This document shows positions 14,613 through 41,073 of a stretch of 44,364 bases of DNA, piece by piece. Both the position numbers and the translations under genes were made by a program. The stretch comes from a virus (taxonomy: Duplodnaviria > Caudoviricetes). The stretch lies in IMG/VR virus record IMGVR_UViG_3300042884_000704, positions 1-44,364 of that record. One strand, 5' to 3'. Numbering within the stretch: position 1 is the stretch's first letter; the number at the start of each line of letters is the position of its first letter. The notes under the pieces were generated by a model. The model did not search any database. It worked only from the letters and a program-made list of their open reading frames with translations, and was not told the DNA's origin.

Positions 14613-14809
14613 TGCGAGACGGAATCAAATGCCCTGAGTGCGGGTCGCAAGACCTGCCTGTGTTCTATACGAGAAACAAATTCGGGCGCGTTGTCCGGAT
14701 GCGTGTGTGTGCTGGTTGCGGCAGTCGATTGTTGACGGCCGAACGGATTGTTTCGGTGGTGGATAAAAAGGAGATTCGCTGTGGGACTGATCATAAATCG
14801 GAAGCGTGA
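14612..14809 (+). CDS. zinc-ribbon protein (Ogr/Delta- or NrdR N-terminal-like)
   Basis: CPECGS...RMRVCAGCGSRLLTAE. Confidence 0.65.
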   Translation: MRDGIKCPECGSQDLPVFYTRNKFGRVVRMRVCAGCGSRLLTAERIVSVVDKKEIRCGTDHKSEA

Positions 14810-14975
14810 GGAAAGTTTTTGGGTCGGTAACGCGTTGGTCACGGTCAACCGGATCGGCCACAATCGCGTCGAGCTAGAGATCGAAGCACCGGGCGACGTT
14901 CCGGTTCTGCGTGACGAGCTTACCCGTCGCAAGAAGGCGGCTGACCCGGAAGTTGATCCACGAAATCAGAAATAA
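14781..14975 (+). CDS. csrA: CsrA/RsmA-family RNA-binding regulator
   Basis: AAGGAG RBS, GTG start; LIINRKREESFWVG...VTV...NRVELEIEAPGDVPVLRDEL matches the CsrA pattern. Confidence 0.8.
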   Translation: MGLIINRKREESFWVGNALVTVNRIGHNRVELEIEAPGDVPVLRDELTRRKKAADPEVDPRNQK

Positions 14976-15054: not shown

Positions 15055-16518
15055 ATGCAGGTTTCGAAGGCTTTTCGCGCTGGCGTCCCATTGGTTTCGG
15101 TAACGACCGGCGACCCGGCAGCAACGATCCGAGCGATCAAAGAGCAATGCTCGGAGGTTAAGGATCCGGTCGGGGTGATTGTCTGGGACGTTGTCCGGGG
15201 TGCTCGCGCTGACAAGAACGATCAACGAGCAGTCGAGGCTCTGGCAGGTCTGCCTCAGCAAGACTACGCCGGTTCGCTGACCAATTTCCTAGCCGACCTC
15301 GGAGAGCTGGCCAGGAGGCAAGTCGTGGTGATCTGCAACGCTCACCTGTTCCTCGATGACCCTCGGGCTGTGCAAGCCGTCTGGAATCTGCGAGACGAGT
15401 TCAAGGCTGCAAAGAAAACGCTGGTTCTGCTCGGGGTCGCAAAGCTGCCGACGGAATTGATCCACGACGTTGTTCAGTTCGACGATCCGTTGCCCAACCA
15501 AGAGCAACTGCGTGGGATCATTTCCTCGGTCTGCGAGTGGGGCAAGGCGACCGTCGACCAAGAAACCATCGACAGCGGGGCAAACGCTGCAATCGGCGTG
15601 ACTGCGTTCTGTGCCGAGAATCTCGCTTCGCTAGCGATGGACAAGTCCGGTCTGGAAGTGGACCAACTGTGGGAGTCGAAACGAAAGAAGATCGATCAGA
15701 CACCGGGGCTGCGGGTCGTTACTCAGTCGGGGGGGTTCGATCGGATCGGCGGCTGCGATGCGTACAAGACCTTCATGCGTCGGGTGCTGAACGGCAAGAC
15801 CAAGCCAAAGGCGATCGTGTTCGTCGACGAGATCGAAAAGTGCCTCGGGGCATCGGGCTCGGATACCAGCGGGGTATCGCAAGACCAACTCGGCCAACTG
15901 CTGTCCTGGATGCAAGACCGACGGGCGACCGGTACGATTCTGGTGGGTCCTCCGGGGGCTGCAAAGTCGGCCGTAGCGAAGGCTGCGGGGTCCGAGGGTG
16001 GAATCCCAACGATCCAACTCGACCTCGGTGGGACGAAGGGTTCGCTGGTCGGACAGTCGGAAGCACAAATCCGCGAGGCGCTGAAGGTGATCGATGCGAT
16101 CAGCGGCGGGGAGACCCTTTGGATTGCGACCTGCAACTCGCTCACCGAACTACCACCGGAACTCAAGCGACGGTTCAAGCTCGGGACTTGGTTTTTCGAC
16201 CTGCCGGATCGAGCCGAACGTGCAGCGATCTGGTCCCTGTACTCTGCAAAGTACGGTCACACGGACAAGGCCGAGATCGACCGACTGCTCGACTGCGAGT
16301 GGACCGGGGCCGAGATCGAGTCCTGCTGCGAGATTGCTGACTCCCTGGGTATCACGCTCGACCAAGCCTCGGCGTATATCGTGCCAATCGCCAAGCAAGC
16401 TCCCGAAGCGATCGCTAAGCTGCGAGCCGGAGCCGAAGGCCGGTTCCTGTCGGCTGCTGTGCCTGGACCGTACACGAAGCAAAAAGAAACAACCATGCGA
16501 AAACTTGAGCTGGAATAG
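15055..16518 (+). CDS. Ycf46-like AAA+ ATPase with permuted Walker B/Walker A order
   Basis: Ycf46-like N-terminal half; IVFVDEIEK precedes GPPGAAKS; IATCN sensor-1; LPPELKRRF Arg finger; WTGAEIE. Confidence 0.8.
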   Translation: MQVSKAFRAGVPLVSVTTGDPAATIRAIKEQCSEVKDPVGVIVWDVVRGARADKNDQRAVEALAGLPQQDYAGSLTNFLADLGELARRQVVVICNAHLFLDDPRAVQAVWNLRDEFKAAKKTLVLLGVAKLPTELIHDVVQFDDPLPNQEQLRGIISSVCEWGKATVDQETIDSGANAAIGVTAFCAENLASLAMDKSGLEVDQLWESKRKKIDQTPGLRVVTQSGGFDRIGGCDAYKTFMRRVLNGKTKPKAIVFVDEIEKCLGASGSDTSGVSQDQLGQLLSWMQDRRATGTILVGPPGAAKSAVAKAAGSEGGIPTIQLDLGGTKGSLVGQSEAQIREALKVIDAISGGETLWIATCNSLTELPPELKRRFKLGTWFFDLPDRAERAAIWSLYSAKYGHTDKAEIDRLLDCEWTGAEIESCCEIADSLGITLDQASAYIVPIAKQAPEAIAKLRAGAEGRFLSAAVPGPYTKQKETTMRKLELE

Positions 16519-17573: not shown

Positions 17574-17999
17574 GTGAGTCACATAGCTACAGTCGAGGTC
17601 GAGTTTCGGGATATGGACGCGCTGGCGAAAGCCTGTGTGAAGTGCGGGGTCGAGCTTCGGCAAGACCAGAAAACGTTCCGGTGGTACAACGATCAAGTCA
17701 GTTCATGCGACGCTGCAATCGTCCACCCAAGTAAGTTCGCTTTCGAGATCGGGGTCCACAAGACCGAGACAGGATTGCGAATCGAGTTCGATCCTCACAA
17801 TCGAGGAAAGAAATACGGGCCAAACACCGGACCCGGAATGCAAGATGCTGTCGCGTTCGAGGACAATTTTCGGGGGCTCGGCAAGCTCCAACAGGCCTAT
17901 GCGGTCGAGGTTGCACGCAAGCAAGCCAAGCGGCAGGGGTTCTCAGTCCGTGAGCAAGTGCAAGCGGACGGTCGGGTCAAACTTACTCTTTCGAGGTAG
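17574..17999 (+). CDS. DUF1257 (Ycf35-like) protein
   Basis: MSHIATVEVEFRDMDALAKAC...LQQAYAVEVARKQAKRQGFSVREQVQADGRVKLTL. Confidence 0.75.
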   Translation: MSHIATVEVEFRDMDALAKACVKCGVELRQDQKTFRWYNDQVSSCDAAIVHPSKFAFEIGVHKTETGLRIEFDPHNRGKKYGPNTGPGMQDAVAFEDNFRGLGKLQQAYAVEVARKQAKRQGFSVREQVQADGRVKLTLSR

Positions 18000-18793: not shown

Positions 18794-19033
18794 ATGGAAT
18801 TGACAATCGTTTTTGGTGAGTGCGTTGAAGCCATTTACAGCGACGAGCTGATCGATGTGCTGTCCGAGCTTGGTTCGGTTTCTGTGCGGCGAGCGTCGCA
18901 CGTTGAGCCTTGCGATGGTGGCTGGTCGGCTGATATGTCGCCTGTCGGTGGTCCAGTCCTCGGGGTGTTCCCGAAGCGACAAGAAGCGATCGACGCTGAG
19001 ATCGATTGGCTTAAATCAAACAAGGATTTATAA
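18794..19033 (+). CDS. conserved small protein of the DUF1257/DUF2997 module
   Basis: GAGG RBS; LGSVSVRRASHVEP...WSADMSPVGGPVLG.F..R.EA..AE..WL, a pattern recalled from planctomycete mobile modules. Confidence 0.65.
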   Translation: MELTIVFGECVEAIYSDELIDVLSELGSVSVRRASHVEPCDGGWSADMSPVGGPVLGVFPKRQEAIDAEIDWLKSNKDL

Positions 19034-37977: not shown

Positions 37978-40900
37978 ATGGATCTGATCGTCGAAAAGAT
38001 GGCCGAGAGTAAAAGTCTAGTTGAATCCTGGGGCGAGGTCATCGATGTGACCGAGTTCATGACGGATTCGAGCGGGTTTTTCAATACGAATGGACTCGGT
38101 GCGTTCACCCAGATTTACGACCGGGCCGACGGTCGATACCGTCCAGTCTATACCAACGAGTCCGACCTGAAACTGATCCGGGCTATGTCCTGGCTGCTGG
38201 TCGAGAAGGTACCGATGGCTCAAGCCTGGGTGAACCGGCTGCTGGATTACACGATCGGGACCGGGTTCGACTGGACGATCAAGGCCGACGATAAACGGCT
38301 TGAGAAGGCGATCCAGTTGTACGTTCGGGAATCGCTCGACGTATCGAACTGGTCGACGGAACTCGAGCGTGAGTCCTACATGCGGGAGGTCGCTGACGGC
38401 GAGTTCATCGGTGAGCATATCTACGAAGACGGTCAGTGTATGGTCGTTTCTCGGGAGGCTGACGAGCTTACCGAACCGGCAATCAAAGGCGAACTGGAAG
38501 AATGGCTCGGGCTGGATTTCGTTCCGTCCTGGACGTTCGGCGTGCTGACGAAGGAATCCCTTCCGGAGCGACCAATCGGGTATCACTTCGTCCGAAACTC
38601 GGCTGGAACCGATTGGGATTACGTTCCTGCGGATCGCGTCTGCATGTGGAAGCGGAACGTACGATCGCGGGGCAAGCGTGGGTTCTCGGACTTCTACAAG
38701 CCGCACCTGTATCTGCTCCGGGCCGACCGGGTACTGACCAACACCGCAGAAGGGGCCGCTACTCAGGCTGCGATTGCGTATATCGTCGAGCACCGGGACG
38801 GAACGCAAAGGCAAGCCGATAACATCGTCAAGCGGTTCGCACCTCCGACCGGCAAGGTGGACCCGTTGACCGGGCTCGCACAACGACGGCGGCGAATGCT
38901 TCCGGGTACTCGGCTCGACGTTCCCGAGGGGCAGGCGTACAAGGCAGGTCTGCTCGGCTCGAACAACTCAGGGATCTACATCGAGGTCATGGAATCGGCT
39001 TTGAGGCTCGCTGGTTCGGTCCATGCGTTCGTCGAAGGGATGCTGACCGGTTCCTATGCGAACAACAACTTCGCGTCGGCTCTGGTCGCTGAGGGGCCGT
39101 TCATGCAGGGCCGGCTCGCAGAGCAGTCGCAACGCAAAGAGCGAATGCGGGATATGATCCTGAAAATAATCAAGCTCGGAGCGTCGAAGGGCCGGTTTCG
39201 ATCGGCCGGTTTCGATTCCTGGGATGCGGTCCGGGACCGGGTCACGGTCGAGGTCATTCCGTCGCGGATTATTCCGGTCGATCCACTCAAGACCGCACAA
39301 GCCCTGGCGATCCAAAAGCAGAACGGTTGGGTGTCGGACAAAACCTGCATCAACGAACTCGGACGGGATATCGATACCGAGACGGCAAACGGGCTCAAGG
39401 TCGGCGGCGCTGAGAAGCAAGCCGGGGCCGATGGTCAACCTGGGGCTGCTGGTCCTGCTGCTGGCCAGGACGGGAATCCTGTAAACGTTTCCAAGAATCC
39501 GGAGCCAGAATCCTCACTTTGGCTGGGATTATCGCGTCAACAGTGGCAACGGAACCGCAAGGCCGTGAGCGATGTGCTGACGGATTTCGCAGACGGAAAG
39601 ACCCGGCGTTCGGTCGCGGTCGCTCTGCTGCGTGCTATCGGGATGCCGGAGCAAGGGATCCAAACGATCCTTCGGGATGCGTCAGACGGGCAGATCGATT
39701 CGCTACCACCAGAGCAGATGGAATCTGTCCAGGAGGCCGAGAGAAAAACACTCAACCGTCCCTTTCGTACGTCGAATGGTCCTAAGAAATTTGCGGTCTA
39801 CGTCAAGAACGAAAAAGGGAACGTGATCCGGCTCGGCTTCGGTGATCCGAAGATGAAAATCAAGCGGGACAATCCAGGAAGCCGGCGCGGGTTTCGGGCT
39901 CGGCATAACTGCCAAGACCCAGGGCCGAAGTACAAGGCTCGATACTGGTCCTGTCGGTTCTGGTCGAAGCCAAGCGTCTCGAAACTTCTGCGCGAGTCGG
40001 TCGAGGAATTCATTCCATGGGACGGCAAGACGTTCGTTCGGGAGTCGTGGCTACTGAAAACAAATCCGCGATTGCAGGAGGCGTTCTGTGCAACCGGCAA
40101 GAAGGGTGGCGTAAAGAACGACTGCCCACCGAAACGGACACCAAAGGCACCGGCAAAACCAAAATTCGTATCAAGCGACCGGGAACGGAATCTTGAAAAC
40201 GACAAGGTCATCAACGGCATGTTGGCAATGTTCAACGATGCAGATATGGCAGGGCTGCAATCCGTCGAGCATCCAAGTCCAAAGGTGATGGAATACTCAA
40301 AGGCCCTTCAAAGGGCGTTGCACGCGTCGGGCGTGAAGGGTGGAAATCCGATCGACCTGTTCGGCTCTAGCTCTGCAATGCACCAACGCGGCGGCGTGTG
40401 GACCGATGAGCGTCGTGAGCTGCACGCTGAAATCTACGACAAGCTGCTGACCGGAGCGGAACCTGTGAGCAATCCTGTGTTCGTTCTGCTTGGCGGTGGA
40501 TCGGCATCCGGAAAGAGCACCCTGACGGCTGGTGGTTTGGCTGAAATCCCTGGATCGATCGTTCGAGTGGATTCGGACCAAATAAAAGCAATGCTGCCGG
40601 AATACGCGGAAGCAAGCGGCAAGGATGCTAGGGCTGCGGCGTTCGTGCATGACGAGTCTGCTTACATGGCCAAGGAGCTTGCTGCAATCGCGTCTGGCCG
40701 TGGCTACAACACAATGCTGGACGGAACTGGCAACGGATCCGAAGGTGGCTTGGCTGGCAAAGTTGGGATCGCTAGGGATCGCGGGATGAAGGTGGTCGCA
40801 GTCTATGCAACGACCGACCTGGACACCGCATTGAAACGAAACGCTGAACGTGCAAAAACCGACGGTCGGATGGTCCCCAATTCGTTCCTGCGATACTCTC

Positions 40901-41073
40901 ATTCGCAGGTCAGCGCGTTGTTCCCTCGGTTCGTTGCAAACGGGAGCTTCGATGAGGCTCACCTGTACGACACGACCGGGGATGCCAAGAAGATTGCAAC
41001 GTATCAAAACGGATCGCTCGAGGTTCACGATCCAAAGGCGTACCGGAAGTTTTTAGATAAGGCAGGTCGCTAA
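37978..41073 (+). CDS. portal protein fused to C-terminal cargo domains including a Zeta/PezT-like P-loop kinase
   Basis: aa 1-475 portal-like (REVADGEFI, PIGYHF, VPADRV, RGFSD, NFASALVAE); basic KKFAVYVK..FGD..FRARHNC..ARYWSC domain; GGGSASGKS, VDSDQIK, HDES, LDGT, GRMVP. Confidence 0.8.
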   Translation: MDLIVEKMAESKSLVESWGEVIDVTEFMTDSSGFFNTNGLGAFTQIYDRADGRYRPVYTNESDLKLIRAMSWLLVEKVPMAQAWVNRLLDYTIGTGFDWTIKADDKRLEKAIQLYVRESLDVSNWSTELERESYMREVADGEFIGEHIYEDGQCMVVSREADELTEPAIKGELEEWLGLDFVPSWTFGVLTKESLPERPIGYHFVRNSAGTDWDYVPADRVCMWKRNVRSRGKRGFSDFYKPHLYLLRADRVLTNTAEGAATQAAIAYIVEHRDGTQRQADNIVKRFAPPTGKVDPLTGLAQRRRRMLPGTRLDVPEGQAYKAGLLGSNNSGIYIEVMESALRLAGSVHAFVEGMLTGSYANNNFASALVAEGPFMQGRLAEQSQRKERMRDMILKIIKLGASKGRFRSAGFDSWDAVRDRVTVEVIPSRIIPVDPLKTAQALAIQKQNGWVSDKTCINELGRDIDTETANGLKVGGAEKQAGADGQPGAAGPAAGQDGNPVNVSKNPEPESSLWLGLSRQQWQRNRKAVSDVLTDFADGKTRRSVAVALLRAIGMPEQGIQTILRDASDGQIDSLPPEQMESVQEAERKTLNRPFRTSNGPKKFAVYVKNEKGNVIRLGFGDPKMKIKRDNPGSRRGFRARHNCQDPGPKYKARYWSCRFWSKPSVSKLLRESVEEFIPWDGKTFVRESWLLKTNPRLQEAFCATGKKGGVKNDCPPKRTPKAPAKPKFVSSDRERNLENDKVINGMLAMFNDADMAGLQSVEHPSPKVMEYSKALQRALHASGVKGGNPIDLFGSSSAMHQRGGVWTDERRELHAEIYDKLLTGAEPVSNPVFVLLGGGSASGKSTLTAGGLAEIPGSIVRVDSDQIKAMLPEYAEASGKDARAAAFVHDESAYMAKELAAIASGRGYNTMLDGTGNGSEGGLAGKVGIARDRGMKVVAVYATTDLDTALKRNAERAKTDGRMVPNSFLRYSHSQVSALFPRFVANGSFDEAHLYDTTGDAKKIATYQNGSLEVHDPKAYRKFLDKAGR
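39480..39493. repeat. palindrome copy 8
   Basis: TGTAAACGTTTCCA in the portal linker. Confidence 0.75.

Follow-up and report, generated by a model that had tools for sequence, protein, structure and literature searches.

Ycf46 is a KaiC-interacting AAA ATPase encoded in a stress-induced operon, as stated in the accessible part of its description (PMC13683863), where neither a substrate nor a mechanism is named. The cyanobacterial and plastid proteins (Synpcc7942_0417; the Geminocystis plasmid homologue WP_066122327.1) consist of two AAA modules, the layout that is also found in P0001, the phage protein described here. Genes for DUF1257 (Ycf35) and DUF2997 lie near that of the Geminocystis homologue; within the 4 kb flanks of this locus no DUF3150 gene was found. 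Unlike P0001, the Geminocystis protein has the normal motif order. Further Ycf46-type relatives of normal order are WDT77853.1 from a Ca. Manganitrophus plasmid, about 28% identical to P0001 over the full length, WP_013524972.1 from Thermovibrio pTHEAM01, and phrog_8638. Mycobacterium phage Corndog gp96, which matches the normal-order query in one piece, is a candidate for the same group.

The best structural matches of P0001 are Cdc48/p97/VAT, Rix7 and Vps4, which have the same set of catalytic residues. These ATPases carry aromatic pore loops in a translocating ring, and to our knowledge Walker A precedes Walker B throughout the group. In VAT, Walker A stands ahead of Walker B; in P0001 the two are reversed. 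Known P-loop NTPase topologies comprise type I (2-3-1-4-5), type II (2-3-4-1-5) and the outlier HPr kinase. Motor-type P-loop proteins have the sheet 2-3-4-1-5, with the active-site loops above the sheet and short connections beneath it, as far as the accessible part of the source goes (10.1101/2020.07.15.204123). P-loop folds tolerate strand swaps and insertions, according to the accessible parts of two studies (10.1101/2020.07.15.204123; 10.64898/2026.08.08.743454), and the topology changes known from this partly accessible literature alter which strands are neighbours in space, while Walker B still follows Walker A in the chain. In the literature searched (few subscription journals, supplementary tables outside its scope) there was no account of an AAA protein with Walker B first, and the accessible main text of the Tunturi phage paper (PMC11924767) mentions neither AAA, Walker nor gp103. 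A Walker B-first AAA clade is apparently undescribed in print. Walker A before Walker B has been held to be a fixed property of AAA proteins; here we describe a large natural clade which reverses this order and keeps the catalytic residues.

Order of the blocks in the second AAA module

The window, i.e. the whole stretch of 44,364 nucleotides that was analysed, corresponds to positions 1 to 44,364 of the IMG/VR virus record IMGVR_UViG_3300042884_000704 (linear; completeness 74%). It is a tailed-phage genome with terminase, portal and tail genes. Most of the sequencing runs containing it come from lake-water metagenomes, and no RNA run is among those listed. The features of the ATPase gene and of its partner genes are collected in Table 1.

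Table 1. Features of the ATPase and partner genes (window positions)
Feature	Position	Strand	Evidence
Two-module AAA protein P0001, Ycf46-derived, 487 aa	15055..16518	+	PF00004 E 9e-15, 2 stretches; phrog_8638 E 2e-45, 4 stretches
First AAA module, aa 1-222, normal order	15055..15720	+	collinear alignment to normal-order relatives, 206 columns at hhalign probability 99.96
Block A: alpha0 helix ahead of second sheet, aa 223-250, unmoved	15721..15804	+	
Block C (aa 251-290), displaced towards the N-terminus: beta3, Walker B (D258-E259), pore loop 2, alpha3	15805..15924	+	
Block B: beta1, Walker A (K304-S305), alpha1, beta2, pore loop 1 (SLVG), alpha2; aa 291-351	15925..16107	+	
Block D: beta4 (sensor-1 N361), R372-R373, beta5, helical lid; aa 352-470; unmoved	16108..16464	+	
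C-terminal tail R-x-hydrophobic-x-hydrophobic-acid of P0001	16498..16515	+	
DUF3150-like partner, 302 aa	16585..17493	+	30/80 aligned relatives match PF11348; Atlas; Foldseek to viral DUF3150 protein E 1e-14
DUF1257 (Ycf35-like) partner	17574..17999	+	PF06868 above cut-off
DUF2997 partner, 65 aa	18246..18443	+	PF11211 E 2.5e-15
Unnamed 79-aa protein, RRASHVEP motif, fifth recurring phage-module gene	18794..19033	+	recurrence

The first module lacks the Walker A Lys and the Walker B Asp-Glu and, read from its sequence, is likely catalytically dead. In the second module the blocks run A-C-B-D instead of the usual A-B-C-D, and the second region of homology within block D is shortened. A sequence-only reading of the window had named the motifs of this module in this order; all are found at the positions given, within a single open frame: IVFVDEIEK ends at 15840 with its DE at 15826-15831, followed by DTSGVS..WMQD (15862-15918), GPPGAAKS (15946-15969), SLVGQSE (16042-16062), TLWIATCN (16114-16137) and LPPELKRRF (16150-16176). 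The same reading had taken the arrangement for a swap of the beta3-alpha3 unit and the beta1-alpha1-beta2-alpha2 unit, relative to the order in Ycf46 and classic AAA proteins. Block profiles made from normal-order relatives only bear this out, recovering C before B in P0001: C at aa 253-289 (32.5 bits), B at aa 292-349 (68.9 bits) and the remainder at aa 356-469 (84.9 bits). Profile-profile probabilities are 99.1 and 99.9 for the two swapped blocks and 100 for block D. Crossed matches, which had been expected of such an exchange, were obtained with VAT (5vc7): residues 292-343 of the query align to 44-95 of the chain and residues 251-297 to the later stretch 103-148, the latter piece being weak alone (1-4 bits). 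The swap is internal and non-circular, again as proposed, since the first module and blocks A and D stay in place and only B and C trade positions. Circular permutation was considered and rejected, as these unmoved parts leave no rotation of segments.

Because the motif order of its second module is abnormal, P0001 is not filed as an ordinary member of the Ycf46 type. Its scores for NCBIfam IteA, CdvC and CDC48 are far under the cut-off. Colinear profile searches score the swapped proteins in pieces (two stretches with Pfam, four with PHROG), so that the rewiring is easily missed in annotation.

Distribution and descent of the swapped ATPases

Homologues with the same order, whose absence had been named as an outcome that would refute the reading, were found by the hundreds. 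The order C-B-D was recovered in 121/121 proteins (the query and the best 120 of 2090 matches), in all 146 further representatives at 50% identity (the best 150 of 6412 minus 4 already counted), in 80/80 viral loci (80 kept of 130) and, at 80 genome loci kept of 169, in the 80 ORFs that could be scored, 6 partial ORFs being unscorable; all searches gave top-ranked matches, which biases these counts toward a uniform order. With stricter normal-order profiles 7 of 267 swapped proteins fell under the score limit and none appeared in normal order. Controls showed the normal order in 119/120 proteins, 78/81 ORFs and 78/78 ORFs, the remainder being incomplete. No fewer than 150 clusters (50% identity) belong to the swapped clade; judged by score alone, 1157 clusters lie within E 1e-30. 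A cultured member is available: gp103 of the Acidobacteriota phage Tunturi_3, which has a complete genome, is the swapped form at 35% identity, and this phage offers a system in which the swapped ATPase can be tested. The sequence-only reading had called the permutation very rare. As a topology it is rare; it is not one odd gene, however, but the hallmark of a large clade of proteins from phages and integrated elements.

Misassembly at the junctions, a concern raised along with that reading, was examined in Logan contigs from four runs not marked as source, which cross the junctions with no joints or differing letters. Junction 1 (15805) is bridged in 4/4 runs, junction 2 (15925) in 3/4 and junction 3 (16108) in 4/4. 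As separate observations, in the genome bins L114, L140, L141, L093 and L105 the swapped ATPase gene is split or present as a second partial copy, one Acidobacteriota bin carries swapped ATPases on four contigs (L118, L127, L137, L147), and several other bins hold two or more.

In a tree built without the swapped blocks and rooted on a cyanobacterial plasmid protein, the 17 swapped rows form one clade (100/100), which is sister to 13 normal-order viral rows (100/99) and nested among 35 normal-order rows. The rows are subsamples: the 17 are drawn from 45 swapped rows, and the normal-order rows were thinned for redundancy. FastTree on 109 rows likewise gives a single swapped clade, whether unswapped, swapped or all blocks are used. 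The stem branch of the clade is long (0.57) and bears other changes as well. VAT also shows the normal order, which is therefore regarded as ancestral. The best reading of these sequence comparisons is that the swap arose once and long ago, a single origin in this sample.

Like the swapped clade, the normal-order relatives named above have an apparently dead first module, the lid, a non-aromatic pore loop 1, the tail and a DUF1257/DUF2997/DUF3150 neighbourhood. Unlike it, they have the block order B-C, R-x-x-R fingers and the alpha3 Arg. Since normal-order sister lineages with the same partner genes are extant, the clade provides a rare before/after pair for a non-circular permutation. P0001 descends from Ycf46-type proteins and probably functions as they do. 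The swap may go back to one event in a mobile-element ancestor, and the simplest route would be a tandem duplication of the B-C unit of about 100 codons, after which the first B and the second C were lost. Among the scored swapped and normal-order proteins, i.e. the top-ranked matches, no duplication intermediate with two strong copies of B or C was found. Screening for longer forms left 5 out of 1660 candidates, each of which has intein domains.

Predicted fold, covariation and catalytic residues

An AlphaFold model had been suggested as a check on whether Walker A and Walker B come together. AlphaFold2 yields a confident model of P0001 (pLDDT 90.4, pTM 0.76), in which the strands follow the swapped chain order and all five are held in one monomer; trained on many normal AAA folds, the program may lean their way. 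The model matches p97 (D1-D2) with Z 18.7 and rmsd 4.3 over 387 residues, and Rix7 is also among the matches. The second module compared with Vps4 gives Z 17.3 and rmsd 3.1 with 214/258 residues aligned; this alignment is about one block short, so the aligner alone is not proof that the moved block superposes. After the P-loop domain the helical lid is present (helices 386-460 in the model).

Covariation was computed from 422 swapped sequences (effective number 254), which share data with the alignment behind the model, so that the two lines are not fully independent. The contacts of a normal AAA fold emerge from it. By far the strongest pair is A253-S350 (z 20.8), in which A253 lies where beta3 begins and S350 where alpha2 ends; the two residues flank the ancestral alpha2-beta3 link that was cut by the swap and are now 97 residues apart. 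Further covarying pairs connect beta3 with beta4 (I260-A358, V255-W356) and beta1 with beta5 (L296-F381), and there are many alpha2-alpha3 as well as alpha0-alpha1 pairs. Coupling between beta1 and beta4 is modest (top z 3.8), the values for non-neighbours being 4.4 (beta4-beta5) and 3.3 (beta1-beta2). When the top 30 mappable pairs were looked up in the normal-order family, 6 passed z 3 as compared to a 1% background and 24 stayed below, in a smaller set (effective number 71). Invariant residues cannot covary, and covariation is blind to whether a contact lies within or between subunits.

A normal AAA active site, with the Walker A Lys next to the Walker B Asp-Glu in a 2-3-4-1-5 sheet, is predicted to survive the swap, with indirect support from the model, the fold matches and the covariation. 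The sheet would retain the spatial order beta2-beta3-beta4-beta1-beta5, with beta3, beta4 and beta1 adjacent, and three new links would lead from alpha0 to beta3, from alpha3 to beta1 and from alpha2 to beta4. Because these links enter the strands from the face opposite the active site, the helix exits would shift by one or two strands and the crossovers would remain right-handed. All exits would shift in the same direction, leaving the active-site face untouched. In contrast to the known topology changes, the predicted three-dimensional order is thus unchanged and the wiring of the chain is altered; numbered along the chain, the sheet would read 3-1-4-2-5. Rewiring is evidently tolerated in the loops that face away from the active site, which is relevant to the diversification of P-loop topologies.

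The sequence-only reading had stated that the key catalytic residues are kept, and this holds across 144 diverse representatives, from which 6 intein-bearing ones were excluded. K304, S/T305, E259 and N361 are each present in 144/144. Position 258 is D in 141 and E in 3. The arginine fingers R373 and R372 occur in 143/144 and 134/144, respectively, and residue 303 in Walker A is Gly in 69 and Ala in 55. The linkers are of near-constant length (25 residues in 134, 10 in 141 and 21 in 135 of the 144). Two differences from the normal-order relatives accompany the swap. The loop of the second region of homology is two residues shorter, with the arginine fingers adjacent (R372-R373) instead of R-x-x-R; adjacent arginines recall the Vps4/spastin group. 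The alpha3 Arg, kept in 114/120 normal-order proteins, is mostly Asp in the swapped ones (96/144). Non-aromatic residues predominate in pore loop 1 (Leu in 100, Ile in 14, Phe in 10 and His in 9 of 144), which weakens a reading as unfoldase; yet the normal-order Ycf46-type relatives are alike, with Leu in 105/120.

Six long swapped representatives bear inserts. In three of them the insert is located at sensor 1, in two it follows GPPG, and in one it separates the Walker A Lys from the Ser. Five of these were scanned and all are intein-like, three of them under the Pfam cut-off; for the remaining one, P0265, an intein domain is listed. As a rule, inteins favour and persist at working catalytic motifs. 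The intein-bearing swapped ATPases are P0242, P0265, P0384, P0294, P0338 and P0353, as well as P0388-P0390, and several of the inteins carry LAGLIDADG or HNH domains.

Partner genes and possible function

The ATPase heads a module in which DUF3150, DUF1257 and DUF2997 genes occur together in 57/62 viral and 46/54 genome loci, counted where full 3 kb flanks were available. Taken singly, DUF1257 is present in 59/62 swapped viral and 51/54 genome loci and DUF2997 in 58/62 and 50/54. All three partners are found in 24/60 normal-order viral loci (DUF1257 and DUF2997 in 46/60 each) and at the normal-order plasmid locus L002. The DUF3150-like partner probably starts at ATG 16585 after GGAGG, within a longest ORF from 16552. 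The protein itself has no Pfam match. Its model (pLDDT 92.6) found no match in the PDB (Foldseek best E 0.22; VIA best Z 9.9, a helical bundle), and its viral matches are DUF3150 or unnamed. Judged by start context, the DUF1257 partner probably begins at GTG 17574, which gives an M-S-H N-terminus; the MSH motif is known from Ycf35, according to the accessible part of PMC13060386. A DUF2997-DUF1257 gene cluster is treated in the accessible part of PMC4284462. The fifth gene, for the 79-aa protein, recurs in 33/80 swapped viral loci, 5/80 genome loci, Tunturi_3 and L002, and has no Pfam or NCBIfam match.

ATPase and DUF3150-like protein have a C-terminal tail motif in common, which is present in 67/144 ATPases and 71/80 DUF3150-like proteins (shuffled maxima 15 and 19). 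Among the 109 plus-strand ORFs of at least 60 aa in the window, a stricter form occurs in 2, namely these two proteins. The common tail and the partner genes offer an entry point to the unexplained Ycf46/Ycf35 system.

In the phage genome the module directly precedes recombination and replication genes. In bacterial loci, mostly Acidobacteriota bins, it often stands amid genes characteristic of mobile elements, namely those for helicase, primase and PRTRC proteins. PRTRC E was seen in 16/80 and Prok_Ub in 12/80 genome loci, and in 0/80 viral loci; examples near the module are L090:10268-10732 (protein E), L159:9330-9539 (prokaryotic ubiquitin) and L157:10264-11370 (a weak protein F match). A radical-SAM (NrdG-like) gene (L121:11195-11416 and relatives) accompanies 52/80 genome loci versus 2/80 viral loci. 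Just upstream of the ATPase, a small CsrA-like ORF was noticed by eye at about 14781-14975 of the window (plus strand); the matching gene in L010 hits Pfam CsrA, and it recurs in 12 viral loci. A scan for promoters and terminators was at chance level (3 vs 1.5; 6 vs 5.6).

We think it probable that P0001 is a Ycf46-derived AAA protein with the Walker B block first and a predicted normal active site, likely an ATP-driven ring motor for protein remodelling that acts with the DUF3150, DUF1257 and DUF2997 proteins, and that the swap was near-neutral. The dead first module would serve as scaffold and the second would hydrolyse ATP in a hexamer, with the arginine fingers acting in trans. The partner proteins may be adaptors or substrate of the ATPase, and the common tail is a likely docking peptide. 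As the swap left partners, tail and pore loop 1 unchanged, a near-neutral change is the preferred reading, although the long stem branch and the accompanying changes call for caution.

The main rival, which we regard as unlikely, is that the swap was adaptive: alpha3 joined to the P-loop strand, together with the shortened arginine-finger loop, would alter the coupling of hydrolysis to the pore loops or the choice of targets. The stem branch of 0.57, the changes alongside the swap (R-R versus R-x-x-R; the alpha3 Arg mostly to Asp) and the size and wide spread of the clade in phages and Acidobacteriota elements are consistent with such a gain. However, normal-order relatives have identical partner genes, tail, pore loop 1 and dead first module, and normal-order versions are common in phages too. 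Doubtful in our view is the bolder proposal that a class of AAA motors with mechanics of its own arose from the swap, in which the coupling of hydrolysis to the pore would be re-routed, and that this class drives an undescribed five-gene phage machine, the ATPase and DUF3150 protein of which would dock via the one common C-terminal peptide. Slimmer still are the prospects of the moved block packing into the neighbouring subunit to form a domain-swapped ring, or of the protein being a nucleotide-binding switch of low turnover. Covariation, which does not separate contacts within subunits from those between them, would allow for this, as would a Walker A of the form GxxGxAKS in 55/144 and a pore loop 1 without the usual aromatic residue, but the confident monomer model contains all five strands, the new linkers are short and of constant length, and the full hydrolytic set is conserved, including Glu259, Asn361 and Arg373.

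That the block order is an artefact of assembly or a chimera has practically no chance, for although a 10-nt direct repeat lies just ahead of junctions 1 and 2 (15794, 15912; third copy at 15879), about 0.2 exact 10-nt pairs per 700 nt are expected by chance (by arithmetic), the same order occurs in hundreds of proteins down to 35% identity, cultured Tunturi_3 included, and contigs from other runs cross the junctions without joints. As a trace of the swap the repeat was also rejected and put down to chance, since its copies are mutually out of frame and the age of the swap far exceeds the time over which nucleotide identity could survive.

Some annotations deserve mention as minor observations. 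Tunturi_3 gp96 (L001:9681-10640), annotated 'HNH endonuclease', looks DUF3150-like; it was itself one seed of the DUF3150-like profile, which recovered 141 ORFs. Tunturi_3 gp111 (L001:3037-3633; 198 aa) is annotated 'portal protein'. In the window, a 1031-aa ORF at 37978-41073 on the plus strand gives successive matches to portal protein, minor head protein and, weakly, polynucleotide kinase.
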